Shown here: positions 8,017 through 25,265 of the stretch, in pieces
How positions within the stretch are numbered: the stretch's first letter is position 1
How the letters are laid out: every line of letters begins with the position of its first letter
Source of the DNA: Candidatus Kaiserbacteria bacterium
GTDB lineage: Bacteria; Patescibacteriota; Minisyncoccia; Phycocordibacterales; Phycocordibacteraceae
DNA length: 37,142 nucleotides
Direction of reading: 5' to 3'
Assembly (NCBI GenBank): GCA_011052355.1
Contig: DRJB01000015.1
Coordinates: 1 to 37,142, forward strand
Notes under the pieces: generated by a model
What the model was told of the DNA's origin: nothing
Database searches by the model: none
The model's input: the letters and a program-made list of their open reading frames with translations, nothing else
Position numbers and translations under genes: made by a program

Positions 8017-8086
8017 TACCTTGTGTATCTTCACACCATACGCTAAAATAATAATATTACTATCTTTAATTCAAGACTCATGTACT

Positions 8087-9046: not shown

Positions 9047-10254
9047 CGCCACAGATGACCACACGCCAAGAAGCTCGTGAAAAAAGCGTCGCTCTTTTGC
9101 ATGAGCTGATAACCGACGTAGGTTTTCTGGCGGCAAAAGAAGACGTGGAAAATTATGAACGTATATGGTCGCGCGATGGCGTGGTGGCGGGTATCGCATC
9201 ACTGCTTATCGGCGATGAGAAACTTATCGCCACATTCAAAAAGACACTTGATTTGCTTGGTGCTCATCAAGATGAAACCGGAAGAATTCCAAGTAATGTT
9301 ACTCCGCGCAAAGGACATGTCAGTTACGGCACAACGGTGGGAAGAGTTGATGCAACGATATGGTATGTCATAGGAATTATGGCGTTCGCAAAACTCACAA
9401 ATGACACCTCATTCTTTGAAGAACGAAAACAATCTGTTGACAGCGCATTATTTTATTTGCGATGTCTGGAATTAAACGGTCGTGGACTGCTCTACATCCC
9501 GCAAGGTGGCGATTGGGCGGACGAATATATCAACCACGGGTACATTCTGTTTGACGAGGTATTATATTATTATGCACTTTCCGCATACGCACAACACACC
9601 GACGACCAAAAAACAATCACTCAGAAAAATAAGCTACGCAAACTTATTGCCATAAATTATTTTCCTGATGAGAAACACTGTGACAATCCGCTCGTATATG
9701 ACAAAGCATTGTATAGATATGCCGTAACACAACGCTCCACTCCCCTTCCGGCATCATATTTTACCAACCACAGCATCCGCTTCAATACCGATACATTTGC
9801 CATTGCTCTTTTACTTTCATGCGATATCTTGGAACAACAACAACGCGATGACATACGTGAATATGTGCGAGCGAATATAAAGCACAACTCATTTCCCATA
9901 TTTCCCGCATTTCATCCCGTCATCACACCAAAAGATATTGAATGGGCGCATCTTAATTTGAATTTCCTATATGAATTCCGTAACAAACCGAACCAATATC
10001 ATAATGGCGGATTGTGGCCACTGGTTCACGGATTTTTCATTTCATCATTTTCAAAAAAAGATGGCTTGGGTGCGCTTGACGATTTTGCAAATGTACTCGC
10101 ACGCGATAAATATATTTTCCCCGAATATTATCACGGCACCACATTCAAAGCTATGGGAACGACTCAACTTGGTTTTTCCGCGGCAAGTTATCTTATTGCG
10201 TACGAATCCATTGTGAATGGAAAAGATATTTATTCCATCATCTCCGGTGTATGA
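9043..10254 (+). CDS. (alpha/alpha)6 six-hairpin glycoside hydrolase, GDE_C / neutral-invertase-like
   Basis: IWSRDGV, GRIPSNV, GGDWADEY...ILFDEVLYYYAL and HNGGLWPLVHGFF resemble the amylo-alpha-1,6-glucosidase/invertase superfamily. The exact specificity is not callable. Confidence 0.6.
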   Translation: MTPQMTTRQEAREKSVALLHELITDVGFLAAKEDVENYERIWSRDGVVAGIASLLIGDEKLIATFKKTLDLLGAHQDETGRIPSNVTPRKGHVSYGTTVGRVDATIWYVIGIMAFAKLTNDTSFFEERKQSVDSALFYLRCLELNGRGLLYIPQGGDWADEYINHGYILFDEVLYYYALSAYAQHTDDQKTITQKNKLRKLIAINYFPDEKHCDNPLVYDKALYRYAVTQRSTPLPASYFTNHSIRFNTDTFAIALLLSCDILEQQQRDDIREYVRANIKHNSFPIFPAFHPVITPKDIEWAHLNLNFLYEFRNKPNQYHNGGLWPLVHGFFISSFSKKDGLGALDDFANVLARDKYIFPEYYHGTTFKAMGTTQLGFSAASYLIAYESIVNGKDIYSIISGV

Positions 10255-11066
10255 TTTTTCTTGTTACAGACCTAGACAGAACACTCTTGCCAAACGGTCC
10301 ATACGCCGATGACAAAAGTATTCCGGAATTATTTAAAAAATTGGAAACGGTTCCCCACATTCTTTGCTATGCAACTGGAAGAAATCTTCCAATGGCGCAA
10401 GAGGCGGTGCGCATGTGGCACATTCCCCTGCCGGATTTTCTTGTTGCGGAGGTTGGCACCTCCTTATACAGAAAATCCGGCAACGATCTTGTCACCGACA
10501 CCCGATGGCGCGAATATATTCTCTCTACGCAAAAAAACTGGAGTGGTGAACACATACGCTCCTCTCTTGGTACCTACGATGCACTCACGCTCCAAGAAGA
10601 AGAAAAACAAAATGAATTTAAGATAAGTTATTATCTCTCCGACCATACTAAAAAAGATGCAACGCTGGAGATAATACACCACACACTTGCACAAGAAAGC
10701 ATCACCGCACAAGTGTTGTGGAGTATTGACCCGCTTGCTGACAATGTCGGGCTTATTGACATTATTCCCGCAACGGCAACAAAAGCCGGTGCTGTGGAGT
10801 TTTTACGTACAAAAGAAGGGTTTGAAAAAGAACAAACATTCTATTGCGGTGATAGTGGAAATGATATACTTCCGCTCTCACGTTGTTACAAATCAATTGT
10901 AGTCAAAAATGCCCCAGAAGAAGTAAAAGAAGAAGTTTCTAAACGAGTTTCCGATGCCAAGTGTACCGATAATTTATATATTGCAACCGGAACACCTACC
11001 AAAAACGGAAACTACGCGTCCGGCATCATTGAAGGACTTGTTCATTTCGGAATTATAACGCTATAG
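10251..11066 (+). CDS. HAD-IIB phosphatase, sucrose-6F-phosphate-phosphohydrolase-like (S6PP family)
   Basis: LVTDLDRTLL (DxD), YATGRNL, PDFLVAEVGTSLY, GDSGNDILPL and IVVKNA. Confidence 0.7.
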   Translation: MIFLVTDLDRTLLPNGPYADDKSIPELFKKLETVPHILCYATGRNLPMAQEAVRMWHIPLPDFLVAEVGTSLYRKSGNDLVTDTRWREYILSTQKNWSGEHIRSSLGTYDALTLQEEEKQNEFKISYYLSDHTKKDATLEIIHHTLAQESITAQVLWSIDPLADNVGLIDIIPATATKAGAVEFLRTKEGFEKEQTFYCGDSGNDILPLSRCYKSIVVKNAPEEVKEEVSKRVSDAKCTDNLYIATGTPTKNGNYASGIIEGLVHFGIITL

Positions 11067-11088
11067 AGATGTCGCCCAGGGGTACCTT

Positions 11089-11598
11089 TCACCACGTACC
11101 AAGAAACTTCGGATAGTGTTTTCGTATAAAACCATCAATGCTGGCAAATCGCCAGCTTCTTCCAAGCCATAGCGCGACAAACACCAAGACATAAATAATT
11201 GCAGTACCGATATCGGTAGAACCTGATACATAAGGACCGCCAAGACCCTCCGCGGTTGTCCATATGACAAGTGCAAGCACAATACCACCGGAAATGGCGA
11301 CTTTTGTGAAAAAACCAAAGATAAGACCGACTGCAATGGCGGTTTCAGCGAGCGCTACGATAATAGCATAGAAATGTGGATCAACAGAAACAGTATGAAT
11401 CCAGAAATTAATCCATGCTTGAACTGCCACCGGCTGACCCTGTGCACCATTAACAAGATAACTGGTAAAATTATTTATAAATGCCGGTCTCCACTTAAAC
11501 GAAGCATCAGCAAGCCACACCAACCCAAACACCACGCGTAACACCGCAAATGATTTATCCTCATGTGATTTCATATAAGTAAGTATATCTCCCAACAC
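11089..11598 (-). CDS. DoxX-like integral membrane protein
   Basis: About 4 TM segments. The N-terminal LRVVFGLVWLADASFKW resembles DoxX-family helix 1. Confidence 0.45.
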   Translation of the reverse strand: MLGDILTYMKSHEDKSFAVLRVVFGLVWLADASFKWRPAFINNFTSYLVNGAQGQPVAVQAWINFWIHTVSVDPHFYAIIVALAETAIAVGLIFGFFTKVAISGGIVLALVIWTTAEGLGGPYVSGSTDIGTAIIYVLVFVALWLGRSWRFASIDGFIRKHYPKFLGTW

Positions 11599-11660
11599 AA
11601 ATATCAGTCAACATATCATCGCAACACCATCTGTGGATAGCGTGTTATGCTGTTATCATA

Positions 11661-12188
11661 ATGAGAACCTTTGCGACGCACCTCAATATAATTATTTCCG
11701 CCATGTGGACTGTGCTTTCCAAATGGACATACCAGGTTGCATTTGTCATATTGGCTGTACTTTTTGTGGCATTGTATATTTCAATTCCGGTAATGCTCAT
11801 ACCGGGGAATACATTCACCTTTCAATTGAGTTTATACACGCCCGCGGATTACGCCATATTTATTTCCATTTCAATACTCACCTCATTACTTGTACTTATG
11901 CAGGTTTTTTCTTTTCTTCACTCGCGCACATACAGCGCGCGCGTCATTGGGCGTGGCAGTGTCGGAGTGTTTTCCGGAATATTTTCAGGAATGTTTGCGA
12001 GTGTAACATGTGTTCCGTGCGCCATTGGATTTCTTGGGATTTTCGGGGGGGTGGAAAGTACGCTTATCATCAGTAAATATCAATACTACTTTATCGCCGT
12101 GGCAAGTATATTTGTGCTATGGGGAATGTATCACGCATCTCGCCGAGTGATGGGATACTGCAAAGAGTGCGATATACAGAACCAATAA
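11661..12188 (+). CDS. polytopic membrane protein with an intramembrane CxxC (TCVPCAIG) and a C-terminal CxxC (YCKECD)
   Basis: ORF track. Hydrophobic segments and two Cys pairs. The overlapping ORF 11633-12076 in another frame is rejected. Confidence 0.5.
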   Translation: MRTFATHLNIIISAMWTVLSKWTYQVAFVILAVLFVALYISIPVMLIPGNTFTFQLSLYTPADYAIFISISILTSLLVLMQVFSFLHSRTYSARVIGRGSVGVFSGIFSGMFASVTCVPCAIGFLGIFGGVESTLIISKYQYYFIAVASIFVLWGMYHASRRVMGYCKECDIQNQ

Positions 12189-12254
12189 CCATCACGATGC
12201 TCACTGTACTATTTATATAGTGTGCATAAGTATTACCTATGTAAAGAATATGAT

Positions 12255-12263
12255 TGCTATAAT
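12255..12263 (+). promoter_or_regulatory. extended -10 element TGCTATAAT, 6 nt upstream of ATG 12270 (candidate leaderless start)
   Basis: Read directly. No -35 element was evaluated. Confidence 0.3.
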
Positions 12264-12269
12264 AAAAAT

Positions 12270-13784
12270 ATGCAAGATGAAGAAAAGAACTTAAAAGAGT
12301 ACAGTCCAAAAACTAACGCATTTAAGACACTGATAGATAAAATATATATTCACCGGATGCCGTCATACGGCAATAAGATATTCTTTTCGCTTGGATTTCT
12401 TGCACTTACTTGTTTAACGGTACTTGTGGCAACCGGTATTGTGTTGGCGTTTATGGGCCAAACATGGTGGCTCACAAATCCATGGGGCATATACTTCCGC
12501 AGTGTACACTTGTGGACCGTACAAGCATTTTTTGTAATACTTATATTGCATATTATTGTGGGTTTCTCTACCAGTGGGTTCCGTCCACCACGCAGAATGG
12601 TGTGGGTTTTTGGAGCCATTATATTTGCACTGGTACTTATTCAAACAGAGTTTGGCTACGGTTTGCGTGGTGATTTCTCTTCCCAATATCGCGCGGTCGC
12701 CGGTGCAGATTTTTGGAATGGTGCTCATTTAGGTTATTGGCTTAATCCTCTCAATTACTCGCAGGCATTTGCCATACATGTCGTCATTATTCCTCTTGCC
12801 ATATTATTTTTATTCGTTCTTCACTACATTCTCGTACATACCTATGGTATTTCAAAACCACTTCGCAAAGACATACCCTACAAAGAGGTACCGGCAAATC
12901 ACAATATACTATTCATTCGTGGCGGGGTACTCGTTGTGGCGATTTTGGTGTTGGCGCTCTTCTTTCACTCGCCATATGTTCCGGCAGTACGCATAGCCAA
13001 CATAGCAAATCAAAACCCAACGCTCGTGGCAACAACGATGTTGCAAGAGTTTAATCACACTTCAGGTACGGCAACGTATTTTGACTCCATTGATCCTTAC
13101 ACATTTAATACACGAAGTGTCTTTGTGGTTACCCCTTATAAGCAGTTCTTGATACATAATCAAAACAACAACGCCTGGACAACATTTGTCAATGCATCAC
13201 CAGCTCAACAAAAAGCATATATACAACAAGCAAAATCGTATGTCACCGCTACAAGTACCAACAATGTAGGAACTAGCACGAACGCTGTTGCAAGCACCAC
13301 AAACCCTGTCATCTCCATGATACACACACTAATGCCCATAGCGAAAAGCGGATTGTATCAATCATTATTGAACCAAGAAAATCAAAACTCTAACTACACA
13401 TACACCTTACGCTTCCTGCTTGATATGAATGTATTGCATGACAAAGCAGCATCGCTTCATATGGATACTGCTGAGTACGGTATGGCAAAAGATGAAAATG
13501 AGGCTCATGGTATATGGGTGCTTCCTCCCGGTTCATGGTGGCTCTTACCACTTGGGTGGTCTAACAGCGCTTTTAATCTATTAGAAAATCCCTATGGCGA
13601 CCAAATCGCAGGTGAGATACTTGGAGCGCTCTTGCTCATATTCATTCTCTTCCCCTATATTCCCTATCTAAATCGTCTTCCGGAATTATTGCCTCTTGCA
13701 CCGATTATTCAAAAAGAACCAAAAGAGAAAGAAAGAGGAGAGGAAAAGGAGCCTGACAAAAAAGAAAACGAAGAGATACATTAG
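12270..13784 (+). CDS. di-haem cytochrome b (b6-type N-terminal domain)-like membrane protein with a long unique C-terminal extension
   Basis: VATGIVLAF (helix A). H-x13-H in SVHLWTVQAFFVILILH (helix B). PPRRMVWVFG resembles the PRExxW box. H-x14-H in AIHVVIIPLAILFLFVLH (helix D). The track ORF starts at 12222, and I prefer ATG 12270. Confidence 0.7.
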   Translation: MQDEEKNLKEYSPKTNAFKTLIDKIYIHRMPSYGNKIFFSLGFLALTCLTVLVATGIVLAFMGQTWWLTNPWGIYFRSVHLWTVQAFFVILILHIIVGFSTSGFRPPRRMVWVFGAIIFALVLIQTEFGYGLRGDFSSQYRAVAGADFWNGAHLGYWLNPLNYSQAFAIHVVIIPLAILFLFVLHYILVHTYGISKPLRKDIPYKEVPANHNILFIRGGVLVVAILVLALFFHSPYVPAVRIANIANQNPTLVATTMLQEFNHTSGTATYFDSIDPYTFNTRSVFVVTPYKQFLIHNQNNNAWTTFVNASPAQQKAYIQQAKSYVTATSTNNVGTSTNAVASTTNPVISMIHTLMPIAKSGLYQSLLNQENQNSNYTYTLRFLLDMNVLHDKAASLHMDTAEYGMAKDENEAHGIWVLPPGSWWLLPLGWSNSAFNLLENPYGDQIAGEILGALLLIFILFPYIPYLNRLPELLPLAPIIQKEPKEKERGEEKEPDKKENEEIH

Positions 13785-13821
13785 AGTTTCTTGTCAGATA
13801 TTTTTAGTCATTATATTCAAT

Positions 13822-14415
13822 TTACTCTTTAATATTATTAAGGAGCTCCGGGAATTCTTTAACTTGGAAATGTCCACTATTTTTAAAAATATGTTTTTTT
13901 GCGCTTGGGAGTGCTTCTGCGTATGCCTCAAAATCTCCGAAGTCAACGACAGGGTCGTCCTTTGATTGATACAAATGTATATGCGAAACTTGCTGTTCAA
14001 TCTTCTCTAAAGAATTACCCAATGTAAAGCCCGCCTTTCCGCAACTTCTATCACCAAACGGAGCCGCCAATAAATGTAAGGATTCTATCTTCTTCGGAAA
14101 AATATTTTCAGAGAGATATTTTGTGAGAAAAATACCACCCAAACTATTTCCGATAAGCACAACCCCATCGTGGACATATGGGATATATTTTTCAAACCAA
14201 ATTTTCCATTCATCATATTTTGCATTCCAAGCGCATGGCATTTGTGGAGTAATCAACTGAAAATTATCTCCCAGTTTTTCAGCAAAAGAATGTCCCCACT
14301 TCTTTGGTTGCTCAGTCACCGGGTTTGCCAGCTTTGTTGTGCGCAGGAAATTCATATACTCTTCGTATGTTCCCCAAGCTTCCCCACCATGTATCAAAAT
14401 CACTTGTCTTTTCAT
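13822..14415 (-). CDS. alpha/beta serine hydrolase (YdeN/RBBP9-like)
   Basis: VILIHGG, nucleophile elbow GNSLGG, DDPVV and GHF near the C-terminus. Confidence 0.7.
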   Translation of the reverse strand: MKRQVILIHGGEAWGTYEEYMNFLRTTKLANPVTEQPKKWGHSFAEKLGDNFQLITPQMPCAWNAKYDEWKIWFEKYIPYVHDGVVLIGNSLGGIFLTKYLSENIFPKKIESLHLLAAPFGDRSCGKAGFTLGNSLEKIEQQVSHIHLYQSKDDPVVDFGDFEAYAEALPSAKKHIFKNSGHFQVKEFPELLNNIKE

Positions 14416-14464
14416 ATAGTATTAACTACACTGTACAATAACATATACCTACTTGCCACCATTT

Positions 14465-14690
14465 TTATACCATGATTGTGTTATTGCGAGCAATGATGTA
14501 TCCAAGTAATTCCGGAAACTCCACATACCCCGCTAATTCATTGAGATGCCACCGTCTGGGATGACTGTAGTTTTGACCCCAAGTTTTCGGCAAAATCTTT
14601 TGATTCATCAAGTGGTACGTATGGATTATTGTCTCCATGGAATACCGCAACATTCCCGGCACTGCCTTTGATTTTGTTCCAGTCAAAATT
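14465..14690 (-). pseudogene. 5'-truncated, frameshifted remnant of a second YdeN-like hydrolase (C-terminal ~70 aa only)
   Basis: Own three-frame reading of the minus strand gives FDWNKIKGSAGNVAVFHGDNNPYVPLDESKDFAENLGSKL, then VIPDGG, then HLNELAGYVEFPELL in three different frames. A stop lies immediately upstream of FDW. It is a paralogue of the C-terminus of the 13822-14415 product (DDPVV...GHF..EFPELL). Confidence 0.55.
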
Positions 14691-14925
14691 CTTATGCCCC
14701 ACGTATTATTAATGCTGTTTTCATAATTATTTAAAAAAAATTTACTATGCGGAGAGATTGTAACCTTTGCGCGAACCTTTTTTGAGCGAAGCTCCTAACT
14801 TTCCATGCGCCGAGCGCGTGGTGGCTTGCAACAATATCTTACGCGCGGAGAACATGGTGACTCTAAACTTAATCTTACGCATTTGAGTCAACTGTGACGC
14901 GCCACACGCCTCTGCTATCGCTACG

Positions 14926-15047
14926 GCGAACCCGCCCGACAAAACCATTTCCTTACCTTTCTTTTTTCACCTGTCGGCGGAGGAGTTTGGAGAGGAGGCA
15001 AACAAAAAATTGAAAAGGAAATGGTTTTGTCGGGCGGGTTCGCTCAG
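14926..15047. repeat. MITE-like palindromic element, copy A (29-bp perfect terminal inverted arms 14926-14954 / 15015-15043)
   Basis: gcgaacccgcccgacaaaaccatttcctt ... aaggaaatggttttgtcgggcgggttcgc. A related copy lies at 19297-19416 in the same orientation. Confidence 0.8.
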
Positions 15048-15070
15048 AGTTCATTATAACCTAAGTTGGG

Positions 15071-15096
15071 GTATTCTACAATAGGATATACAATAC
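15071..15096 (+). promoter_or_regulatory. candidate C-box-like operator: GTATTCTA-N10-TACAATAC, ending 5 nt before the C-gene ATG
   Basis: Imperfect inverted repeat read directly. Two TACAAT hexamers overlap it. Confidence 0.3.
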
Positions 15097-15101
15097 TAAA
15101 T

Positions 15102-15329
15102 ATGGATAAGTCAATTCATTCAACAAAATATAAAACTGTACTTCAAAATTTACTTAAAGCTCGCCATGAGTTTGGTTTAATGCAGGTTGAAGTTGCAGAA
15201 AAACTTAAAAAACCTCAATCGTTTGTATCAAAAATTGAGCGTGGTGAGCGGAGGTTAGATGTTATTGAATTGGAAGCTTTTGCAAAATTATATAAAAAAA
15301 GTGTGGATTGGTTTTTAATTAAAAAATAA
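15102..15329 (+). CDS. XRE-family HTH protein, controller (C-protein)-like
   Basis: LLKARHEFGLMQVEVAEKLKKPQSFVSKIERGERRLDVIEL is a classic HTH_3 pattern. 75 aa, stop 2 nt before the next ATG. Start placed at ATG 15102 inside the track ORF. Confidence 0.8.
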   Translation: MDKSIHSTKYKTVLQNLLKARHEFGLMQVEVAEKLKKPQSFVSKIERGERRLDVIELEAFAKLYKKSVDWFLIKK

Positions 15330-15331
15330 TT

Positions 15332-16018
15332 ATGACAAAATTCAAAGAATTTACAAATTTTCTAAAAACAGTACAACTTCAAAAATATCGTAAGGAATAC
15401 AGCACAATAAAAATTGTTGAGATGGATTTACCTAAAAATATTCAGGCGATAGAATTACTCTATACAGTCTATTGGGAGGAGAAAAAATTTGTATCGTTTG
15501 AAGATTTTTATAAAAGATATTTACAAGAAAAAGGATCTACTATCGATGAATTCAGAATTAAAACAACAATGTGTGAGGATTGTTTCCGTCGCGGGCTTAA
15601 AGCAAGAATTTACAGAACTTGGGCGGGTTTAATTACTCAAATACATGCTGGATATGTTGCAGAGTCTGTTTTTGGTGATGGTACAGTGTTAATGTCAGAG
15701 AAACTTGATCATCAAGGAGCAGATATAAGGGTAGAATATAAAAGACACGCACTCAACTATCAGGTTAAAAAAACATCGCATGCGGGTGTTAAAAGTAGTA
15801 AACCTTTAGCGAGAAAAAATGTTATGGACGGAGAGCCTATTGATATTTTATATGAAGTACCAGCATGTTTATCTGATCCAAAAACAAAGAAAGGAGAATT
15901 TAGAGTTCCGTACTTAAGATTTTTAGAAGACACTAGGACAGAAACATTTGAAAATGGATTTGTTGTATTTACCGCAGATACTTTCTTGCCAAAGAAAAAA
16001 GAAATTGATGCAAACTAA
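15332..16018 (+). CDS. putative type II restriction endonuclease (PD-(D/E)xK-like)
   Basis: Position (C gene, then this gene, convergent with a methyltransferase). Candidate catalytic core is GADIRVEYK...NYQVKK (D-x12-QxK). No family recognised by eye. Confidence 0.5.
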   Translation: MTKFKEFTNFLKTVQLQKYRKEYSTIKIVEMDLPKNIQAIELLYTVYWEEKKFVSFEDFYKRYLQEKGSTIDEFRIKTTMCEDCFRRGLKARIYRTWAGLITQIHAGYVAESVFGDGTVLMSEKLDHQGADIRVEYKRHALNYQVKKTSHAGVKSSKPLARKNVMDGEPIDILYEVPACLSDPKTKKGEFRVPYLRFLEDTRTETFENGFVVFTADTFLPKKKEIDAN

Positions 16019-17538
16019 AATAATTTTGCTGATACTTTTGTCTCCTTGAGCCATTTTTGTGCAATTTTAATATAGTCAGGATTGATTTCAAAACCTATAT
16101 AGTTTTGTTCTAGTTCTTTGGCAACAACACACTCTGATCCAGTTCCTACAAAAGGAATTAGTACAACCCCACCTTTTTGAGGCAACGATGATTTAATAAG
16201 TTTACGAGTTATCTCTAAAGGTTTTTGTGTAGGGTGCTTCATTACATCGTGCTCTCTGTGTTTTTTTAATTGTTTTGGTTCAAAAACACCTTTGCATGTT
16301 TTACATAAAAACCACCGTTCGGTCATTCCTGCTCCACCAGCAAGAGCTGGTACTTTTATAACATCTCGAGGTAAAGCTCCTCCCTCATGTGCTTTATAAA
16401 CGGTTTCTTTTTCTCCGTTACTAAACCTACCAGCAGTTGCCTTTCTTTTTTTTCCAGCCGCACCATTAAGAAAACCATCTGTGTATGGTTCGCGAACATC
16501 GTCACGATTAAAAACAGGCTTATCTTTCCATGCACATATAATTGATTCATGGCTTCTTTGCCAAAAATGTAACGAAGCAACATTTTTGTTTGTGTAGTGC
16601 CAAATTAGCCATCGTTTATTTATAGGTATCTCAACCGAAAGATGTGCTAATATTTCACTAAAGCCATATATAAAAAGTGTTCCTGTTGGTTTCATTACGC
16701 GAATACACTCATTTATCCAACTTTTACACCATTCAACGTATTCACCAAACTCTCTTTTATCAATATTATTACCGAAATCTTTACCGATATTATAGGGGGG
16801 GTCTACAACAACCACATCACAACTATCATTTGGAAGTTTCCTTAATTCTTGAATAGCATCTCCTAAAATAATTTTATTTAGAGGCAATTTAGAATCCCTT
16901 TTTATTTTGTCTGAGGTAATTATAGATTCTGTTTGTAGTTCCTCTTCATTTTTTATAACATCAATTACAATACCTTGGATAATTAACTCCCTATTTTTTT
17001 GAATTATAATAGGTTCAAGTTTCTCGTTTGCAGGCTGTAGTCTTACATGACCACGCTCTTTATAAAATTTCTTTAGTGTTGCTTCATATCCATCAATCAA
17101 AGCCACGACTTTTTCACCATTGCTAGCTGTGTTTTGATATTTAGCTAGAATAATGTCTCCATTGTGAATATTTTCATCAATCATACTATCTCCAACCACA
17201 CGCAAAGCATAAAATTCTCCCATTCTAGGAACTCGTGATTGTGGGACAGCTATTGTTTCTCTGTCCTGTATTGCCTCAATTGGTTGCCCAGCCGAAATCA
17301 TTCCAAGAAGTGGAACATTTATCATCTTTTCTTTTTCATAAACATCAAGCGAACGAGGTTTATTTTCTCCTTTGTGTAGCAAACCTAAATTTTCCAACTT
17401 TTTTATATGGTAGTGTATTGTTGAAACAGATTTTAGTTTTAATTTCTTTTTAATCTCTTCAAAAGAAGGAGCGTAACCTTTTTTCTTTTTATGTATTTCT
17501 ATAAAGTCTAAAATTTCTTTTTGTCTTTTTGTAGTCAT
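16015..17538 (-). CDS. LexA-like repressor (wHTH + S24 autopeptidase) fused to a beta-class N6/N4 DNA methyltransferase
   Basis: N-terminal KEILDFI..GYAPSFEEI..STIHYHIKKLENLGLL. VPLLGMISA-GQP (Ala83-Gly84), GDSM (Ser118), TLKK (Lys156). Then VVVDPPYNIG (motif IV, checked in the DNA at 16801-16803 for Asp), HPTQKP, and the C-terminal motif I FVGTGSE. Confidence 0.85.
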   Translation of the reverse strand: MTTKRQKEILDFIEIHKKKKGYAPSFEEIKKKLKLKSVSTIHYHIKKLENLGLLHKGENKPRSLDVYEKEKMINVPLLGMISAGQPIEAIQDRETIAVPQSRVPRMGEFYALRVVGDSMIDENIHNGDIILAKYQNTASNGEKVVALIDGYEATLKKFYKERGHVRLQPANEKLEPIIIQKNRELIIQGIVIDVIKNEEELQTESIITSDKIKRDSKLPLNKIILGDAIQELRKLPNDSCDVVVVDPPYNIGKDFGNNIDKREFGEYVEWCKSWINECIRVMKPTGTLFIYGFSEILAHLSVEIPINKRWLIWHYTNKNVASLHFWQRSHESIICAWKDKPVFNRDDVREPYTDGFLNGAAGKKRKATAGRFSNGEKETVYKAHEGGALPRDVIKVPALAGGAGMTERWFLCKTCKGVFEPKQLKKHREHDVMKHPTQKPLEITRKLIKSSLPQKGGVVLIPFVGTGSECVVAKELEQNYIGFEINPDYIKIAQKWLKETKVSAKLF

Positions 17539-17551
17539 ATTTTTATGATTT

Positions 17552-17601
17552 GATTTTCTAATTACTTTCGATTATAATTATATAGAAAATGAGTAGAAAA
17601 T
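17552..17601. promoter_or_regulatory. candidate operator in the divergent intergenic region: ATTTTCTA (17553-17560) inverted to TAGAAAAT (17583-17590), repeated at 17594-17601
   Basis: Read directly. AT-rich context, so a chance occurrence is possible. Confidence 0.25.
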
Positions 17602-17614
17602 ACAAATAAATTAT

Positions 17615-18994
17615 GTGGATATGAATCTAGAAAATATAAATTACATAACAGAAGAAAAATTGCCCGAGGTTAAAACCCTAATTATAGGGATATCTTTATT
17701 TTTGGGTGCTTTTGTTCTTGTTGATAATTTTATAAATCAATTTATTAGTTTAGAAGTCAAAGCTGTAATTTATACGGTGCTTATACTTTCATGGATTTCA
17801 TTTTGGACATTTAAGAAATTTCGTTTACCAAGAAGTAAAAAAGAGGAAGTTGGAATTGTAATTTCTATTTTTTCAGAAAATGAAAAAGAGAGACAGAGGC
17901 TGAAAGCCGATTTTATTGGCAAATTAAAAAAGGATTTTCAACAAGAAGGAATTTTAAATTTTTCTGAAATAATTTTTTTAAAGAATCATTTTTCAAAACA
18001 AATTATAGAATCAAACAATCCAAAAGGTATTTTAGAAAAATTTAACAAAAAAATAAAAGCCCACTTTTATGTTTGGGGTGATGTTAAAAAAAGGACAGAC
18101 GGAGATGAAGGAGAAAAATATTTTTTGAACTTTCAAGGTTATGTTGTTCACAAGCCGATTTCTCAGAATTTAAGTCAAGAGATTTCAAGAGATTTTTCAA
18201 AGGTTCTTCCTTCTGAGGTAAATTTTTTAGAAAAGAGAAGCTTCAGAGGATTTGAGGCTTCGGCAAAGATAGTGCACCTGGCAACAAAATATATTATTGG
18301 AGTTGCTGCTTTTGTTTCTAATGATCCACGACTAGCCTTGCAACTTCATAATGGATTAAAGGAACAGTTTAATACATTTAAACCCTTACCGCCTCACATA
18401 CAGGAGATTAGAAATCGTATACCAATTTTAATCTCAGATGAGCTATTTTGGATTGCAAAGTGGTATTTTGAAAATAATAATATAGAAAAAACAAAAGAGT
18501 TTATACAAAAATCAATAGATGAAAATAATAATAACTATGGAGCATGGTTACTCAAAGCAATGATAGATTTTTCAGTGGACAACAATATAGATGAGGCTCT
18601 TAAGAGTACAAAAAAAGCAAGAGGGTATACTAAAAATAGTTATGAGTGGAGATACAATGAAGCCTTTCTATATTTTTGGAAAGAGGATTACACCAACGCT
18701 TTGCGCTTATGTCAGAAAATTAAAAAACAAAATTATTTAACAGAAGAAGTTACTGTCAAAGAGGTGCGTAAATTTAATTTAAATATTTTGCAAAACAATC
18801 CATCGAAACATCAGTTATATTTTTGGATTGGTTATTTAAGCTGGTTTAAAGAAAAAAATATAGTAAATGCTTTACAAGATTTTGAGAAATTTGAAGAATT
18901 GGCTGATACTAACATGGATATTTTAAAACAAAAATCCTCAGCTTATTTAATAGAAATAAGACAGAAAATGAAAATTGGCATAAAAAATAAATAA
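17615..18994 (+). CDS. membrane-anchored (2 TM) protein with a central alpha/beta region and C-terminal TPR-like repeats
   Basis: Hydrophobic LIIGISLFLGAFVLV and VIYTVLILSWISFWTF. TPR-like YGAWLLKAMIDF..DEALKS, YNEAFLYFWKEDYTNALRLC and YFWIGYLSWFKEKNIVNALQDF. GTG start at 17615, alternative ATG at 17621. Confidence 0.7.
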   Translation: MDMNLENINYITEEKLPEVKTLIIGISLFLGAFVLVDNFINQFISLEVKAVIYTVLILSWISFWTFKKFRLPRSKKEEVGIVISIFSENEKERQRLKADFIGKLKKDFQQEGILNFSEIIFLKNHFSKQIIESNNPKGILEKFNKKIKAHFYVWGDVKKRTDGDEGEKYFLNFQGYVVHKPISQNLSQEISRDFSKVLPSEVNFLEKRSFRGFEASAKIVHLATKYIIGVAAFVSNDPRLALQLHNGLKEQFNTFKPLPPHIQEIRNRIPILISDELFWIAKWYFENNNIEKTKEFIQKSIDENNNNYGAWLLKAMIDFSVDNNIDEALKSTKKARGYTKNSYEWRYNEAFLYFWKEDYTNALRLCQKIKKQNYLTEEVTVKEVRKFNLNILQNNPSKHQLYFWIGYLSWFKEKNIVNALQDFEKFEELADTNMDILKQKSSAYLIEIRQKMKIGIKNK

Positions 18995-19045
18995 GGGGCA
19001 ACGCTTGCGCGCGCAATTGGGTGGGGTAAGCGCAATATGATTTGC

Positions 19046-19075
19046 TTGTGCGTTTAGCACAATCCTTTTTCTTTT
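19046..19075 (+). terminator. intrinsic terminator after the TPR gene
   Basis: ttgtgc-gttta-gcacaa followed by tcctttttcttttc. Confidence 0.45.
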
Positions 19076-19264
19076 CAGTACGATTTACACAAAACTTTAA
19101 TCGGAGGCAATGAGCGAGCCACGAGAACACCGCAGAGGCTTGGCGAAGTATGAGCCAGCCATGCGAGGTGTTTCTCGTTGGCGAACGGACGGACAATTTA
19201 CCACAGGCATAGCGCCAAGTTTGCGAAGAAATGGAGGAGTGGTGGCAGAAAATAGAAAGAAAAA

Positions 19265-19273
19265 TGTTATAAT
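19265..19273 (+). promoter_or_regulatory. extended -10 element TGTTATAAT pointing into repeat copy B and the hairpin-rich region
   Basis: Read directly. No -35 element identified. Confidence 0.25.
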
Positions 19274-19296
19274 ATCAATAAGCCATTTTGGAATTT

Positions 19297-19416
19297 CTGA
19301 GCGAACCCGCCCGACCAAAACCATTTCTTTACCTTTCTTTTCACCTATCGGCGGAGGGGTCTGAGGAGAAGCAGAACAAAAAATTGAAAAGAAAATTATT
19401 TTGGTCGGGCGATCGC
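19297..19416. repeat. MITE-like palindromic element, copy B (left arm intact, right arm degraded)
   Basis: ctgagcgaacccgcccgaccaaaaccatttc ... ttggtcgggcgatcgc. Aligns along its length with copy A. By eye, the centre and right arm are more diverged than the left arm. Confidence 0.75.
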
Positions 19417-19600
19417 ACTCGTCGCAACGAGTGCGATGTGGCGTGGTGGAGTCGTCGTCTCTCGCGCCCTGCAGGGCGCGAGAGAAAGCACGCGGAGCGT
19501 GGAAAACACTTTTGGATTCTGGATTCGGCAGGGGGATTCAGAACAGACGGCACTTCGTACCGACCATATTTTTGGTTCAGAAACCCTTTTCGAAAATCTG

Positions 19601-19687
19601 CGGAGAGGGAGGGATTCGAACCCTCGATGGAGTTTCCCCCATGCCGGTTTTCGAAACCGGTGCCTTCAACCACTCAGCCACCTCTCC
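19601..19687 (-). tRNA. tRNA-Ser (anticodon CGA), long variable arm, no encoded CCA
   Basis: The reverse complement reads GGAGAGGTGGCTGAGTGGTTGAAGGCACCGGTTTCGAAAACCGGCATGGGGGAAACTCCATCGAGGGTTCGAATCCCTCCCTCTCCG. Anticodon loop is TTCGAAA. Confidence 0.95.
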
Positions 19688-19775
19688 ACTGAATAAACAC
19701 ATAACCCCGTTAATGTGTGACCACGTTAATGACCAACAAGTGGTGTAGGTATTTTAACATACACACCAAACAAAA

Positions 19776-19818
19776 GGATGCAGCCCTATACCTTCAGTAA
19801 AGGCATAGGGCTGCATCC
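19776..19818 (-). terminator. hairpin plus T-run downstream of the small minus-strand ORF
   Basis: ggatgcagccctat...atagggctgcatcc. On the minus strand it is followed by ttttgtttgg. Confidence 0.4.
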
Positions 19819-19820
19819 GA

Positions 19821-19922
19821 TAGAGAAGTGTTAGGCAGCTTGCTCTTCTGTTCCTGTTTCTTCGGGAGCTGTTGCTCCTTCAGGTGTTGCTTCAGGTGCA
19901 GGATTGGTTGTGTTTGTGTTAT
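19821..19922 (-). CDS. candidate 33-aa acidic, Thr/Pro/Glu-rich peptide (MDSDNTNTTNPAPEATPEGATAPEETGTEEQAA)
   Basis: Own translation. ATG to TAA, followed by the terminator above. Below the ORF-track length cut-off. No family. Confidence 0.25.
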
Positions 19923-20189
19923 CTGAATCCATATTTTGTTATAGGTGTCCAGTTTCGTCTTGTAAAAAACGAAACCTTCCAGTTATTAGACCGGCAATGT
20001 AATATCGACCTACTTCATTAACCTACCACATACTCAAAAATAAATCAAGTGCAAATGTCTATTGCCTAGCATTTTTAACCACTATAATAAAGACATACTA
20101 TAGCTAAATTATATTTGTGTATTCAGGCAGAAATCAGCACTCCTCTGGCTATTCCGATAAAAATATGCCATTATACATACACGGTTTTT

Positions 20190-20261
20190 GGCCTCATCGT
20201 CTAACGGCTAGGACAGCGCCCTTTCACGGCGTAAATCGGGGTTCGATTCCCCGTGGGGTCA
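20190..20261 (+). tRNA. tRNA-Glu (anticodon UUC), no encoded CCA
   Basis: GGCCTCATCGTCTAACGGCTAGGACAGCGCCCTTTCACGGCGTAAATCGGGGTTCGATTCCCCGTGGGGTCA. Anticodon loop is CTTTCAC. Confidence 0.95.
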
Positions 20262-20267
20262 CATACA

Positions 20268-20306
20268 ACACACAATGGGAGCCCCGCGGGGGCTCCCATT
20301 GTGTGT
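20268..20306. terminator. 18-bp perfect hairpin between convergent tRNA-Glu and tRNA-Met (candidate bidirectional terminator)
   Basis: acacacaatgggagcccc-gcg-ggggctcccattgtgtgt. Weak T-runs on both sides. Confidence 0.5.
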
Positions 20307-20314
20307 AATCCTTG

Positions 20315-20385
20315 TTGCGGGGGCCGGAATTGAACCGGCGTCTGGGGGTTATGAGCCCCCCGAGGTACCTCTCCTCTACCCCGCT
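20315..20385 (-). tRNA. tRNA-Met (CAU), initiator-like
   Basis: The reverse complement reads AGCGGGGTAGAGGAGAGGTACCTCGGGGGGCTCATAACCCCCAGACGCCGGTTCAATTCCGGCCCCCGCAA. 1:72 mismatch (A-A), G:C run closing the anticodon stem, and an acceptor 3' strand (CCCCGCA) identical to E. coli tRNA-fMet. Confidence 0.85.
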
Positions 20386-20479
20386 ATCGCACAGTATACA
20401 ACAAATGATATTACATTCAAGTATTGTGCGGTGGACAACTTAGTTGGATGCCGGTTTGGTTGGGTATGCATTTTACTAA

Positions 20480-20520
20480 ACCACAGGGTCGGAACATCCC
20501 AGATGTTCCGACCCTGTGGT
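20480..20520. repeat. orphan 18-bp-stem hairpin between tRNA-Met and the cupin gene
   Basis: accacagggtcggaacatc-cca-gatgttccgaccctgtggt. Confidence 0.6.
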
Positions 20521-20606
20521 TTCAGGTTCATGTCCGATACGGACAACAGGTACTGTGGATAAACAATTATACCTCACGGCACGCCTGTCATATACTTTAA
20601 AGAAAC

Positions 20607-20966
20607 ATGCAAACCTCTTATCACTATCACGAAAACCGCCCGTGGGGTTCTTTTGACCAATTCACTCACGATACGCAAACAACAGTAAAGATATTAAACG
20701 TCTCGGCAAACAAACGTCTTTCTTTGCAAAAACACAAACACAGAAGTGAGTTTTGGCATGTCATCTCCGGGAACGGCACTGTAACAATTGAGACAAAAGA
20801 ACTCCGTGCGCGACAAAATGATGAATTTGAAATACCAGCTGATACAATACATAGGATTACAGGTGGCAATGAAGGAATACGCCTGCTTGAAATAGCGACA
20901 GGGAATTTTGATGAAAATGACATTATTCGTATTGAGGACGATTTTGGCCGCACAGACGCGCCATGA
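20607..20966 (+). CDS. cupin-type mannose-6-phosphate isomerase (type II PMI C-terminal-domain-like)
   Basis: RPWGSFDQF, LSLQKHKHRSEFWHVISG, HRITG and DIIRIEDDFGR. Confidence 0.85.
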   Translation: MQTSYHYHENRPWGSFDQFTHDTQTTVKILNVSANKRLSLQKHKHRSEFWHVISGNGTVTIETKELRARQNDEFEIPADTIHRITGGNEGIRLLEIATGNFDENDIIRIEDDFGRTDAP

Positions 20967-22042
20967 CACTGATCTTTTATATACTCGCACTTTTTCTCAC
21001 CTCATTTGTTGCCGGAATTCTCATAGGTGTTATCTTTTCGCCACTGTTGCGAAAAGAAATAACAGGTCATGCACCAACCTACCAAAAGAAACACCATGCT
21101 GTTGAAATGCTACAACGCAGTACACACAATCCAATATTACAACCAAGAGGAAACGGTTTTGAAGAGTTGGCTGTATTTAATGCCGCCGCATTTGACCTTG
21201 ACGGTTCGGTACACTTGCTTTATCGCGCCATGGATAAAAACAACACCTCAACAATCGGGTATGCACGTACAAAAGATGCTCTCCACATTGATGAGCGTCT
21301 TGACACACCCATATATACACCACGTGCGGATTTTGAACAAAAAAAGGGAGACCCTCATTGGAACTCAGGTTGTGAAGACCCGCGCGTATCAATCATTAAT
21401 GAGCGAATACACATGACATACACTGCGTACGATGGCGTACACTCTCCGCGCGGAGCATACACCTCAATCTCTATTGATGATTTTCGTAAACACAAATGGG
21501 AAAAATGGAGTATGCCGGTTTTAATTACTCCTGAAAACGTAGATGATAAAGACATTGGTCTTCTACCGCAAACCATACAAAAAAATTATCTGCTGTATCA
21601 CAGAGTGTATAACAATATATGTGCTGACACTGTCTCCACCCTTTCTTTCAGAAAACCGATAACACTTTGCATTGAGATATTATCGCCACGCTCCCACATG
21701 TGGGACGAAGTGAGAGTTGGTATCACGGGACCGCCCATACGTATTTCCGATGGATGGCTTTTGATATACCATGGTGTCTCACACGATAACACTTATCGCT
21801 TTGGCGCCGCTCTACTGAAAGAAAATGGGATGGAAATAACCGCGCGCACCATTGAACCGATTTTTGAGCCGACCGAACCATATGAAAAAAACGGTATCGT
21901 CAATAATGTGGTATTTTCTTGCGGAGCGGTGATGCGCGGGGATACAATTTTTGTATATTATGGCGGTGGAGACAGAGTGCTTGGTGTGGCAATAGGTAGT
22001 GTGGATCACATAGTGCATAAACTACGCACACAAACAACATGA
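20963..22042 (+). CDS. GH130-family glycoside phosphorylase/hydrolase (beta-mannoside-type) with an N-terminal TM segment
   Basis: NPILQP...AVFNAAA...LLYRAMD, GCEDPRV, GWLLIYHGV, YRFGAALL and VVFSCG...IFVYYGGGD. Confidence 0.8.
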   Translation: MTLIFYILALFLTSFVAGILIGVIFSPLLRKEITGHAPTYQKKHHAVEMLQRSTHNPILQPRGNGFEELAVFNAAAFDLDGSVHLLYRAMDKNNTSTIGYARTKDALHIDERLDTPIYTPRADFEQKKGDPHWNSGCEDPRVSIINERIHMTYTAYDGVHSPRGAYTSISIDDFRKHKWEKWSMPVLITPENVDDKDIGLLPQTIQKNYLLYHRVYNNICADTVSTLSFRKPITLCIEILSPRSHMWDEVRVGITGPPIRISDGWLLIYHGVSHDNTYRFGAALLKENGMEITARTIEPIFEPTEPYEKNGIVNNVVFSCGAVMRGDTIFVYYGGGDRVLGVAIGSVDHIVHKLRTQTT

Positions 22043-22800
22043 CACAACCTGAAGTATTTATTTTTGATTTAGATGGGACAATCGCGGAAAGCAAGCAACC
22101 TATCACCGCACGCATGGCGGAAATGCTCACACAATTACTCGCGCACTCGCGCGTGGCAATCGCCTCAGGAGGAAAATTTAAGCAACTGCACAAACAAGTT
22201 GCCAACCAGCTCCCCGCTAACACACAGTTGGAAAAATTATATTTCCTACCCACCTCCGGAGCGGCACTTTATTATTATCGCGATACAAAGTGGCACACGG
22301 TGTATGAAAAACTCTTAACTGATACGGAAGCTATACACATTACAAAAGCAATTGAACAAGCTGTTAAAAGCACACGTGTCATCTTTCCGAATACCACACT
22401 CTATGGAACACAAACTGAATTTCGCGGAACAGAAGTTTCATTTTCAGCGCTTGGGCAAAATGCTCCACTGGAACAAAAACGTACGTGGGACCCCACACGA
22501 GAAAAAAGAGAAATACTGCACGCCTCTCTTGTGCCGTTGTTGAGTGAGTACGAAGTACACATCGGCGGAATGACCACTATTGATATTACCCAAAAAGGAA
22601 TTGATAAAGCATATGGCATAGAAAGGCTCTCGGAATTTCTTTCTATACCAATAACACACATGTTATACATCGGGGACGAATTGCAAAACGGTGGCAACGA
22701 TGAGGCGGTGTTACGTACGCAAGCACACACACATAAAGTAACAGACCCCCGTGATACGTATCGCTTTATTACAGAACTACTCACACACGAAGATATATAA
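22039..22800 (+). CDS. HAD-IIB hydrolase, phosphomannomutase-like
   Basis: FIFDLDGTIAES (DxDGT), IASGGKF and GDELQNGGNDEAV. Confidence 0.7.
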   Translation: MTQPEVFIFDLDGTIAESKQPITARMAEMLTQLLAHSRVAIASGGKFKQLHKQVANQLPANTQLEKLYFLPTSGAALYYYRDTKWHTVYEKLLTDTEAIHITKAIEQAVKSTRVIFPNTTLYGTQTEFRGTEVSFSALGQNAPLEQKRTWDPTREKREILHASLVPLLSEYEVHIGGMTTIDITQKGIDKAYGIERLSEFLSIPITHMLYIGDELQNGGNDEAVLRTQAHTHKVTDPRDTYRFITELLTHEDI

Positions 22801-22812
22801 TTTCGCACGGAA

Positions 22813-23820
22813 GTGTATAATGAATGTATGTCAATGCGAGAACAAATTTCGCTCATGCCGGCGCAGTTTCATTGGGAGCCGACATACGAACGAGAAAATA
22901 AACTGAGCAAAGATTCTTTACAGAATGTTTTTTTGTGTGGCATGGGTGGTTCACATCTTGGAGCGGATTTATTATTGCGCGAAGCACCCGCACTTCCTTT
23001 AACAGTGCGTCATGAATACAGTCTGCCGATTATCCCCGAGGAACAACTCGCGCACACGCTCGTTATAGTGAGCTCATATTCCGGCGAAACTGAAGAAGCG
23101 CTTGATGTATTACATACCGCTCTGCAAGAAAACATACCCTGCGCCGCAATCACCTCGGGAGGGACATTACTTGCGCAAGCACGCGATGCCGGTATTCCCA
23201 CAATTATATTTCCCAAAGACGGCGTTGAACCACGTATGACACTCGGGTATGCACTGCGAGCACTTACAAAACTCCTCAATGAGGAAGAACTGTTCGTGAA
23301 TATCAAAAAAAGTGGTGAGGAACTTTCAACAGACACGCGAGAAAAAGAAGGTGCGTCCCTTGCAGATATATTTGCACACAAAATCCCTGTTTTTTATACC
23401 TCTACTCGAAATGTTGCAGTTGGTTATATTTTGAAAATCACTCTCAATGAAACGGCAAAGATACCAGCATTTGCAAACACCATTCCCGAAGCATGCCACA
23501 ACGAACTCTCCGGATATGACGCCGTCGCTTCATCAAAAGAAATTATACACACGTTGCTTCCGGTTTTTGTAACCGATGAAAAAGACCACCCGCGCATACG
23601 CGCGCGCATGCGCTTGATGCGCGAAATATTTACCAAAAGAGAAATATCTTCTTGCGAGATGGCGATTGCTCCACAACTCTCCTCGCTTGCGGGAGCCATT
23701 GAAGTGATACAAACCGGTACGTCTGTGGCGGTGGAACTAGCCAAGCGAGATGGCGTACCGGACGCACACACCCCAATCATTGATGACTTCAAACAACGGC
23801 TTGCAAAAATACCATGGTGA
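22813..23820 (+). CDS. bifunctional phosphoglucose/phosphomannose isomerase (SIS domain)
   Basis: CGMGGSHLGADLL and VIVSSYSGETEEAL, size about 330 aa. GTG at 22813, alternative ATGs at 22828 and 22834. Confidence 0.8.
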   Translation: MYNECMSMREQISLMPAQFHWEPTYERENKLSKDSLQNVFLCGMGGSHLGADLLLREAPALPLTVRHEYSLPIIPEEQLAHTLVIVSSYSGETEEALDVLHTALQENIPCAAITSGGTLLAQARDAGIPTIIFPKDGVEPRMTLGYALRALTKLLNEEELFVNIKKSGEELSTDTREKEGASLADIFAHKIPVFYTSTRNVAVGYILKITLNETAKIPAFANTIPEACHNELSGYDAVASSKEIIHTLLPVFVTDEKDHPRIRARMRLMREIFTKREISSCEMAIAPQLSSLAGAIEVIQTGTSVAVELAKRDGVPDAHTPIIDDFKQRLAKIPW

Positions 23821-24626: not shown

Positions 24627-24642
24627 CAACACAGAATTTTAT

Positions 24643-24684
24643 GCCCACCCCTCGCCCGGCGCCAGCGCCGGGCGAGGGGTGGGC
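24643..24684 (+). terminator. GC-rich perfect hairpin after the ROK gene
   Basis: gcccacccctcgcccggcgc-ca-gcgccgggcgaggggtgggc. No clear T-run follows. Confidence 0.45.
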
Positions 24685-24820
24685 TCCTCCACTCACACAC
24701 CCGCATACACAATAGTTATACACACACAATCTCCTATACACCCAAGCATAATTGGTACATAGTATATATAAACACTATATATGTGTCCGCTCGTGAATTT
24801 TATTTCTTAAAAATAATACT

Positions 24821-25240: not shown

Positions 25241-25265
25241 TCAATCGCGCGTTAACGCCATACTT

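Follow-up and report, generated by a model that had tools for sequence, protein, structure and literature searches.

The DNA considered here is a stretch of 37,142 nucleotides from Candidatus Kaiserbacteria bacterium, a member of the Candidate Phyla Radiation (CPR) of bacteria (contig DRJB01000015.1, positions 1 to 37,142; this whole stretch is called the window below), and the subject of this report is an AT-rich block at 15046–18994, which carries a gene for a LexA repressor fused to a DNA methyltransferase (LexA-MTase). A sequence-only reading of the window had described an abrupt change of composition at this block, and a windowed GC calculation bears this out: the GC fraction is 0.24–0.37 in the 500-nt windows covering 15001–19000 versus 0.38–0.50 in the flanks, with sharp switches at about 15045 and 18995. 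The block consists of four intact open reading frames (ORFs) in the layout given by that reading, namely a small controller (C) protein, a restriction endonuclease (REase), the convergent LexA-MTase, and a divergent protein with two transmembrane segments (2TM) and tetratricopeptide repeats (TPR). For comparison, 45 LexA-methylase loci were collected from GTDB genomes, together with several metagenome contigs, and individual loci are cited below by their L numbers.

The first ORF spans 15066–15329 on the forward strand, with a likely start at the ATG at 15102, and the resulting 75-aa protein (15102–15329) belongs to the XRE/HTH_3 type of helix-turn-helix (HTH) proteins, as indicated by Pfam (HTH_3, E 2e-10) and by the control-protein models of PADLOC. 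In 11 other loci, a homologue with 53–61% identity is encoded at the corresponding place. A C-box-like operator/promoter, ATAACCTAAGTTGGGGTATTCTACAATAGGATAT, is found at 15056–15089 on the same strand; inverted TAGGAT/ATCCTA half-sites also precede the C gene in L001, L012, L016, L024, L025, L044 and L045. The ATCCTA...TAGGAT boxes are conserved in eight loci, and no C-gene locus with readable upstream sequence lacks them. We therefore identify the HTH gene, by its sequence and surroundings, as that of a C-protein with a conserved C-box. A C gene located just upstream of an REase gene is the classic means of delaying restriction when a system enters a new cell, and here the distance between the C stop codon and the next ATG is only 2 nt, as had been noticed from the sequence.

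The second ORF (15332–16018, forward strand, 228 aa) had been proposed as a nuclease candidate, and it can now be named more precisely as a TaqI-family Type II REase: it matches PF09573 with an E-value of 2e-30 and a score of 106 bits (cutoff 26), the alignment taking in positions 1–219 of the 229 of the model, and it matches the PADLOC REase_II model at 6e-23. The search returned 1073 homologues, several of which already carry the TaqI-family name at NCBI. Among 29 of these homologues, the invariant residues are D126, D131, N142-Y143 and V145-K146-K147; we read D131 together with Q144-V145-K146 as a putative core of the PD-(D/E)XK type, in which Q144 is not invariant. A sequence search of the PDB with the REase gave no match.

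The third gene (16015–17538, reverse strand) converges on the REase gene with a 4-nt overlap and encodes a protein of 507 aa in which the LexA_DNA_bind, Peptidase_S24 and N6_N4_Mtase domains follow one another. Residues 1–62 form a winged helix-turn-helix (wHTH), while residues 220–507 form a beta-class N6/N4 DNA methyltransferase with DPPY at positions 246–249; in between, Ala83-Gly84 corresponds in the sequence to the LexA cleavage site, and Ser118 and Lys156 to the S24 catalytic dyad. The LexA portion is complete: residues 3–197 score 177.5 bits on the TIGR00498 lexA equivalog model, whose cutoff is 110.95, and this part aligns over its full length with the LexA of T. maritima (3k2z, E 2e-29). 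A83, G84, S118, K156, DPPY and the S-adenosylmethionine (SAM)-binding FxGxG motif are invariant in 120 of 120 homologues with 70–100% identity. The nearest methylases of solved structure are the N6A enzymes M.BceJIV (PDB 8URK), M.RsrI and M.MboIIA, and the enzyme of the island probably makes N6-methyladenine (m6A). Within the methylase domain, at residues ~413–435, there is also a conserved C-x2-C...H...H insert (ERWFxCKTC..VFEP..LK.H..H...KHPTQKP), which may bind zinc as a small element of the region for target recognition. At NCBI, the protein is called 'transcriptional repressor LexA', and the public annotation of LexA-MTases under this label alone is in need of correction.

Convergent RE_TaqI and N6_N4 methylase genes with intact catalytic motifs constitute the gene set of a Type II restriction-modification (R-M) system, and the same pairing recurs in other genomes. 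In about 29 of the 37 loci with downstream sequence, the methylase gene faces a convergent TaqI-family REase gene, the 3' ends of the two overlapping by 4–18 nt overall and by 8 nt in most loci, and the C gene is present in about 12 of some 40 loci (the window and the 11 others mentioned above). Other partners occur as well: nucleases of the Endonuclease VII/His-Me types in L054 and L055, and in L010 an ORF that weakly resembles ThaI (E 0.008, below the Pfam cutoff). The LexA portion is even more widely shared, as a search of 1.84 billion cluster representatives returned many proteins of 430–890 aa that have only this N-terminal part in common with the island protein, and all ten of those scanned proved to be DNA methylases, of the beta N6_N4, alpha D12, gamma N6_Mtase/Eco57I/TaqI_C and C5 classes. 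Among the more unusual architectures are a 1129-aa triple fusion of LexA, a beta-MTase and a gamma-MTase with TaqI_C (L014, 6001–9390), and a locus with two wHTH-methylases (L047, 3889–5064 and 6150–7247). In L074, from Nealsonbacteria, a gamma-class fusion is accompanied by a convergent downstream ORF and by defence and toxin-antitoxin (TA) neighbours.

Regarding the origin of the block, the earlier suggestion of horizontal acquisition is borne out. In the sister genome L063, whose cytochrome b and FtsZ are 79% and 89% identical to those of the window organism, tRNA-Ser(CGA) follows cytochrome b after only 25 nt, and the segment corresponding to 13785–19599 of the window is entirely missing. 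Moreover, the module keeps a GC fraction of 0.357 ± 0.025 across 32 loci, whatever the composition of the host flanks (0.27–0.52), and it is found in unrelated chromosomal neighbourhoods across CPR classes. Taken together, the comparisons support the view that the block is foreign defence DNA acquired horizontally. A tblastn search against phage GenBank entries, aimed at a phage origin, gave no match.

The closest module, that of L001, has a methylase 85% identical to that of the window in a host with a GC fraction of about 0.55, and it is informative about the borders. Its whole AT-rich island, composed of a cargo gene, the LexA-MTase, the REase, the C gene and a hairpin, is bracketed by a 160-nt inverted repeat (arms at 6634–6793 and 10590–10749, 96% complementary), which suggests that this island is a non-autonomous transposon-like unit. 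The ends of the window element comprise one arm homologous to the L001 repeat and two copies of a hairpin. The arm is a GC-rich segment at 14745–14925, probably terminal to the mobile element, in which 14762–14850 matches the L001 terminal inverted repeat with 76% identity over 89 nt (blastn, E 2e-13). The hairpin copies are the palindromic repeats of about 120 nt that the sequence-only reading had placed on both sides of the block, and repeat searches and folding confirm them: the left copy (14926–15043, ~118 nt) is near-perfect, with a folding energy of −71 kcal/mol and a z-score of −9, and abuts the AT-rich DNA; the right copy (19301–19411) is 76–82% identical to it, has a degenerate right arm, and starts 306 nt past the TPR stop codon. 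A hairpin homologous to that of the window adjoins the C gene in L001; extra copies of the repeat were not found in any fetched locus outside this organism. On the right, the GC profile places a GC-rich spacer (18995–19300) inside the repeat-bracketed segment, and this spacer and a second GC-rich stretch (19412–19599), lying between the TPR gene, the right repeat and the tRNA, form local hairpins and contain no convincing ORF, Rfam match or similarity to other loci, the sister genome included. Rfam, applied with gathering and E-value thresholds to the hairpin repeat and the spacers, reported nothing besides tRNAs.

Two flanking features had been described in terms that now need some adjustment. 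On the left, a truncated hydrolase pseudogene had been proposed; what is found at 14465–14702 (reverse strand) is a frameshifted, 5'-truncated C-terminal fragment that faces the island, is spread over two frames and resembles the neighbouring 197-aa serine hydrolase. A pseudogene of a hydrolase paralogue is plausible here, if weakly indicated, by a Pfam Ser_hydrolase match with an E-value of 0.07 and a 9-aa EFPELL match to that neighbour. On the right, tRNA-Ser(CGA) is indeed present (19600–19687, reverse strand) with its 3' end towards the island; it lies 605 nt from the block and is not adjacent to it, contrary to what had been thought, and it stands on the side of the TPR, or cargo, gene. 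No integrase was found among the island ORFs, and the 3' end of the tRNA-Ser showed neither an att-like duplication nor a tRNA-derived repeat longer than 10 nt. Across the modules, 16 of 34 have a tRNA no more than 1.5 kb from the methylase stop codon on the side of the REase and C genes, co-oriented with the REase gene in 14 of these 16, whereas only 2 of 38 loci have one on the other side. These tRNAs are mainly tRNA-Ser, with four anticodons, and tRNA-Asn; in five loci, the tRNA 3' end is 13–31 nt from the REase ATG, and L017 has a tRNA-like 3' remnant with no tRNA. Integrases were not seen among the called genes of the inspected module loci.

The composition of the host DNA gives an indication of the target. 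In the host part of the window, TCGA has an observed/expected ratio (O/E) of 0.14 (10 occurrences versus 72 expected), and no other palindromic tetramer among the 16 has a lower value. When the flanks of module-bearing loci are pooled, TCGA again ranks last, with an O/E of 0.42, compared with 0.77 for CPR loci that lack the module and 0.79 for the sister genome. This depletion fits an REase that is probably specific for TCGA.

The regulatory features of the module are concentrated in the promoter of the methylase gene. A block of about 95 nt is conserved upstream of nearly all methylase genes, with a constant order of elements: TGTGGATAAC, a TTGAYT −35 box, a 17-nt spacer that includes two direct repeats with an 11-bp period, and a TATAAT −10 box. 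In the majority class, a conserved AAGTCAAG beside the methylase ATG corresponds, in our reading of the alignment, to TTGACT on the opposite strand at promoter distance from the −10 box. The unit of the tandem repeat covaries with the recognition helix of the LexA domain, both copies changing in step. Most loci, the window included, combine TTTCTA with the helix SVST(A/I)H(F/Y)H, while the other pairs are ATTTTAGG with SIVTIHEH (L028), ATTTTCGGG with AIGTIHEH (L030), GTTCGGT with AKSGVSEH (L033), TGCTCGGGT with SPST(T/A)HEH (L034 and L041), TTCAC with SLGTAHKH (L020), and TTTCGGT with SVATVHQ in the gamma-class fusion of L074. The promoter of L074 reads CTGTGAATAAC, tandem repeat, TATAAT, in which CTGTGAATAAC is a one-mismatch variant of TGTGGATAAC, and the C5 fusion in L076 has the same promoter layout, with TGTGGATAAC itself. 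In the two fusions of other classes that were examined, the LexA part is thus accompanied by its promoter/operator cassette. Because the repeat units covary with the recognition helix, and do so in both copies at once, the comparison across loci strongly indicates that the LexA domain of the fusion would bind the tandem-repeat operator and repress its own promoter.

In the window, inspection of the sequence and alignment across loci place this divergent promoter/operator region at 17539–17620, the 82-nt gap between the methylase and TPR genes. The gap contains a 47-bp near-palindrome with four TTTCTA/TTTCGA half-sites (17554–17571 on the plus strand, 17583–17600 on the minus strand) that surround overlapping −10 boxes, and a TTGATT-17-TATAAT promoter (17550–17578) directed at the TPR gene. 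Exact or one-mismatch occurrences of the operator repeat in the window are limited to two in this gap and one inside the TPR gene (18951–18968), and allowing up to two mismatches gives eight. The predicted operator, a tandem direct repeat in the methylase promoter itself, differs from the palindromic SOS box of LexA, and within the window there was no sign that it controls an SOS regulon.

The element TGTGGATAAC deserves a separate description. Its reverse complement is TTATCCACA, the consensus of the DnaA box; it lies at −85 to −95 of the LexA-MTase ATG (loci L010–L056), and it is present in 37 of 42 methylase promoters; in the four loci measured, it is fixed at 28–30 nt upstream of the −10 box, and the similarity between loci ends exactly at this element. 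The window has a copy at 20554–20562 and an inverted one, with 8 of 9 matches, at 17614–17622, and the element also precedes unrelated genes, such as the mannose-6-P isomerase/GH130 operon of the window. It may act as a DnaA site, as an element of CPR promoters or as a junction for recombination. A methylation-sensitive promoter was considered too, and it was dropped as a main claim because TCGA is only weakly enriched in the methylase promoter (10 of 42 loci versus 4.6 expected).

These observations can be brought together in one reading, to which we assign a probability of roughly 70%: the block is a mobile Type II R-M module that carries a passenger gene and was inserted 3' of tRNA-Ser, and in this module the LexA-MTase represses its own synthesis until DNA damage relieves the repression. 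According to this scheme, the LexA winged helix would bind the 11-bp-spaced repeats between the −35 and −10 boxes of its own promoter and so keep the methylase autorepressed. DNA damage would then lead to RecA filaments, one likely source of it being the self-restriction breaks that arise when methylation lags; the filaments would trigger S24 self-cleavage at Ala83-Gly84. Once cut off from the S24-MTase body, the DNA-binding domain would no longer repress the promoter, and the burst of methylase that follows would play a part comparable, for a Type II system, to restriction alleviation. RecA-stimulated self-cleavage and derepression are proposed because the cleavage apparatus is invariant.

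A number of points weigh against this proposal. We infer operator binding, cleavage and methylation specificity from sequence, and the repeats to which canonical LexA binds are inverted, not direct. A recA gene was not found in the DNA examined, a result that is uninformative because this DNA is only part of the genome. Regarding specificity, the O/E of TCGA is 0.44 in loci with non-TaqI partner nucleases, and the host DNA (1–14925 and 19412–37142) is also depleted in GGCC (O/E 0.15) and GATC (0.30), so that the TCGA depletion is not specific proof of the target; the low GGCC and GATC values imply that other restriction systems also exert pressure on this host. Inside the island, TCGA shows no clear depletion (4 observed versus 7.2 expected), and the AT-rich composition suggests a recent arrival, yet the strong avoidance of TCGA by the host suggests long exposure. 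Finally, shorter, wHTH-only methylases that lack S24 exist in L047–L049 and L051, where they are paired with the same TaqI-family REase, and it follows that S24 cleavage is dispensable for a working system. The peptidase is, as these variants indicate, an add-on to a simpler design based on autorepression.

The wHTH-only variants also favour the alternative that survives best, namely that the LexA part serves only for DNA binding and dimerisation in a constitutive autorepression, is never cleaved, and has no coupling to damage. This explanation has a precedent as well, since autoregulation by N-terminal HTH regions is established for other methylases, such as M.SsoII, M.EcoRII and M.MspI. We nevertheless consider it unlikely: the Ala-Gly site and the Ser/Lys dyad are conserved without exception in the 120 homologues, and a complete S24 domain is kept in fusions to four unrelated methylase classes, which argues for selection on catalysis and not on dimerisation alone.

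The place of the fourth gene leads to the next alternative. This gene (17621–18994, forward strand) encodes a protein of 457 aa with a 2TM/alpha-beta/TPR organisation, or of 459 aa if the alternative start at 17615 is used, and it is divergent from the methylase gene with a gap of 76–82 nt. In its AlphaFold model (pLDDT 90), a pair of long helices at the N-terminus is accompanied by an alpha/beta domain and a solenoid of TPRs, while the middle domain modelled alone reaches a pLDDT of 58. Fold searches returned generic TPR solenoids and GT2-TPR viral models with TM-scores below 0.3 and nothing else, and there was no match in PADLOC, PHROGs or a specific NCBIfam model, NCBIfam giving a sub-threshold TPR hit only. 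Thus, of the PADLOC searches recommended by the sequence-only reading, those with the C-protein and the REase were productive, and that with the TPR protein was not. The protein belongs to a CPR-wide single-gene family of its own, with at least 123 CPR proteins of 40–76% identity that occur as single genes in unrelated settings, such as beside an integrase and C5-methylase pair, beside a Rep/serine-recombinase element, or after gatB.

The sequence-only reading had taken the four genes as a composite anti-phage cassette, and in its fullest form this alternative holds that all of them make up one system, with the membrane TPR protein as a dedicated sensor or effector partner. In its favour, the four genes share one AT-rich, repeat-bracketed block; the TPR and methylase genes share their palindromic operator/promoter region, in which a good promoter is directed at the TPR gene; and the TPR and LexA-MTase families are both restricted to CPR bacteria and their relatives, and highly conserved. 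The co-occurrence data stand against it. A tblastn search (E ≤ 1e-3) of more than 45 other LexA-MTase loci found no TPR match, so the four families occur together nowhere outside this organism; the genes upstream of the methylase across loci are 121 unrelated singletons, and the TPR family is found alone, or near gatB, a Rep/recombinase element or a different R-M system, as noted above. In L001, despite its closely related methylase, the slot is filled by an unrelated 366-aa gene, and homology to the window stops at the −35 box of the methylase promoter. We therefore take the real unit to be (C)-R-LexA-M, with the TPR gene as an apparently interchangeable cargo and not a component of the system, and regard the four-gene system as quite improbable. 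The claim that the gene set exceeds a minimal C-R-M system is retained in part: the methylase does carry a LexA proteolytic switch in addition, but the TPR protein is not its partner. As for a third alternative, that the host uses the fusion as its housekeeping SOS repressor, with an orphan epigenetic methylase attached and no part in a mobile R-M system, its NCBI name and its passing of the lexA equivalog threshold are outweighed by the convergent nuclease gene that is nearly always paired with it, a chromosomal site that differs between genomes and is empty in the sister genome, a foreign composition, and an operator specificity that diversifies rapidly, unlike a regulon-wide SOS box, so that we reject it as extremely improbable.

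To return to the mobile R-M module, its cargo slot has properties of its own. Among 32 loci, 25 have a divergent upstream neighbour and 12 have one that is itself AT-rich, and several of these neighbours are known or candidate defence genes, for which reason the slot behaves like a position for defence cargo. They include a CBASS cyclase (PADLOC E 3e-105), Schlafen AlbA_2/PDC-S19, PDC-S39/DUF4209, and HEPN and PycTM proteins, and in L010 a ThsB-TIR protein is encoded two genes away; the positions concerned are 5000–5923 in L016, 4878–5993 in L024, 4097–5896 in L012, 6694–7889 in L003 and 6776–7213 in L010. Since the intergenic region of the window is one palindromic operator/promoter unit, regulatory coupling of the TPR and methylase genes is possible, and the TPR gene, which shares this operator, may be co-repressed and damage-inducible in this sub-lineage. 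A bolder extension, which we hold to be doubtful, is that LexA-methylase modules are damage-gated expression platforms, with an outward promoter under the same operator driving the cargo, and that the 2TM-TPR protein is a new defence or abortive-infection effector, a role proposed from the position of its gene alone. If it were true, defence would have two tiers: restriction first, and then RecA-triggered cleavage of the LexA-MTase, which would release second-line effectors and more methylase, and the activation of RecA could stem from degraded phage DNA or from self-damage.

More generally, the REase of an R-M system is a toxin that has to be kept in balance with its antidote, the methylase, and the controls known to do so include C-proteins, antisense RNAs and HTH-fused methylases. 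If the present reading is correct, the LexA-methylase adds a damage-sensing loop to these, through which breaks due to under-methylation, or damage in general, would result in more methylase. The presence of LexA on four methylase classes points to a general, convergent design and not to a one-off fusion. No description of a LexA-methylase fusion was found in the literature searched, which by itself is not proof of novelty, and the LexA-fused methylase with its covarying tandem-repeat operator is a widespread and apparently undescribed variant of R-M regulation in CPR bacteria. Because these bacteria largely lack CRISPR, LexA-MTase modules may be a major mobile part of their immunity. The natural variants of helix and operator also amount to a specificity code for LexA-type winged helices, which could help in building orthogonal repressors.

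Two further observations concern the host side of the window. A cytochrome b gene (12222–13784; PF00033/PF13631) is present and is conserved in 11 related contigs, which is unexpected in Kaiserbacteria, since the usual view is that CPR bacteria have no respiratory chains. A tRNA-Glu/tRNA-Met cluster is flanked by hairpins that are perfect or nearly so, with arms of 18–21 nt (19776–19818, 20268–20306 and 20478–20522); these are probably terminators or processing signals.

Among known systems, TaqI of Thermus aquaticus, which recognises TCGA, is the natural reference for the nuclease, as the REase belongs to the same family (PF09573) and the avoidance of TCGA by the host fits this target. However, M.TaqI is a gamma-class enzyme with TaqI_C, while the island methylase is of the beta class (PF01555), and TaqI has neither a C-protein nor a LexA fusion; the island system, for its part, is known from sequence alone. 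With PvuII, BamHI, Esp1396I and AhdI, the island shares a small HTH gene just upstream of, and predicted to be co-transcribed with, the REase gene, as well as inverted-repeat boxes; it differs in that the C gene is optional and that the methylase has a repressor domain of its own instead of being controlled by C. An N-terminal DNA-binding domain and an operator in the methylase's own promoter, with the autorepression that this implies, are likewise features of M.SsoII/M.Ecl18kI, M.EcoRII, M.MspI and M.ScrFIA, whereas the island fusion has a complete LexA with its self-cleavage apparatus, a direct-repeat operator, and relatives in four methylase classes. LexA, lambda CI and UmuD offer the counterpart of the switch, with which the island protein shares the S24 Ser-Lys autopeptidase, the Ala-Gly site, the wHTH and a score above the TIGR00498 cutoff; unlike these, the LexA of the island is fused to an enzyme, resides on mobile elements, has a direct-repeat site, and has an operator that diversifies between copies. 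Finally, the likeness to CapH/CapP of CBASS and to ClpXP in the restriction alleviation of Type I systems is one of logic only, in that proteolysis ties defence to DNA damage: the proteins are unrelated beyond a generic HTH, for which the C-protein matches the PADLOC capH model at an E-value of 2e-4, and in the island it is the methylase itself that would bear the switch.

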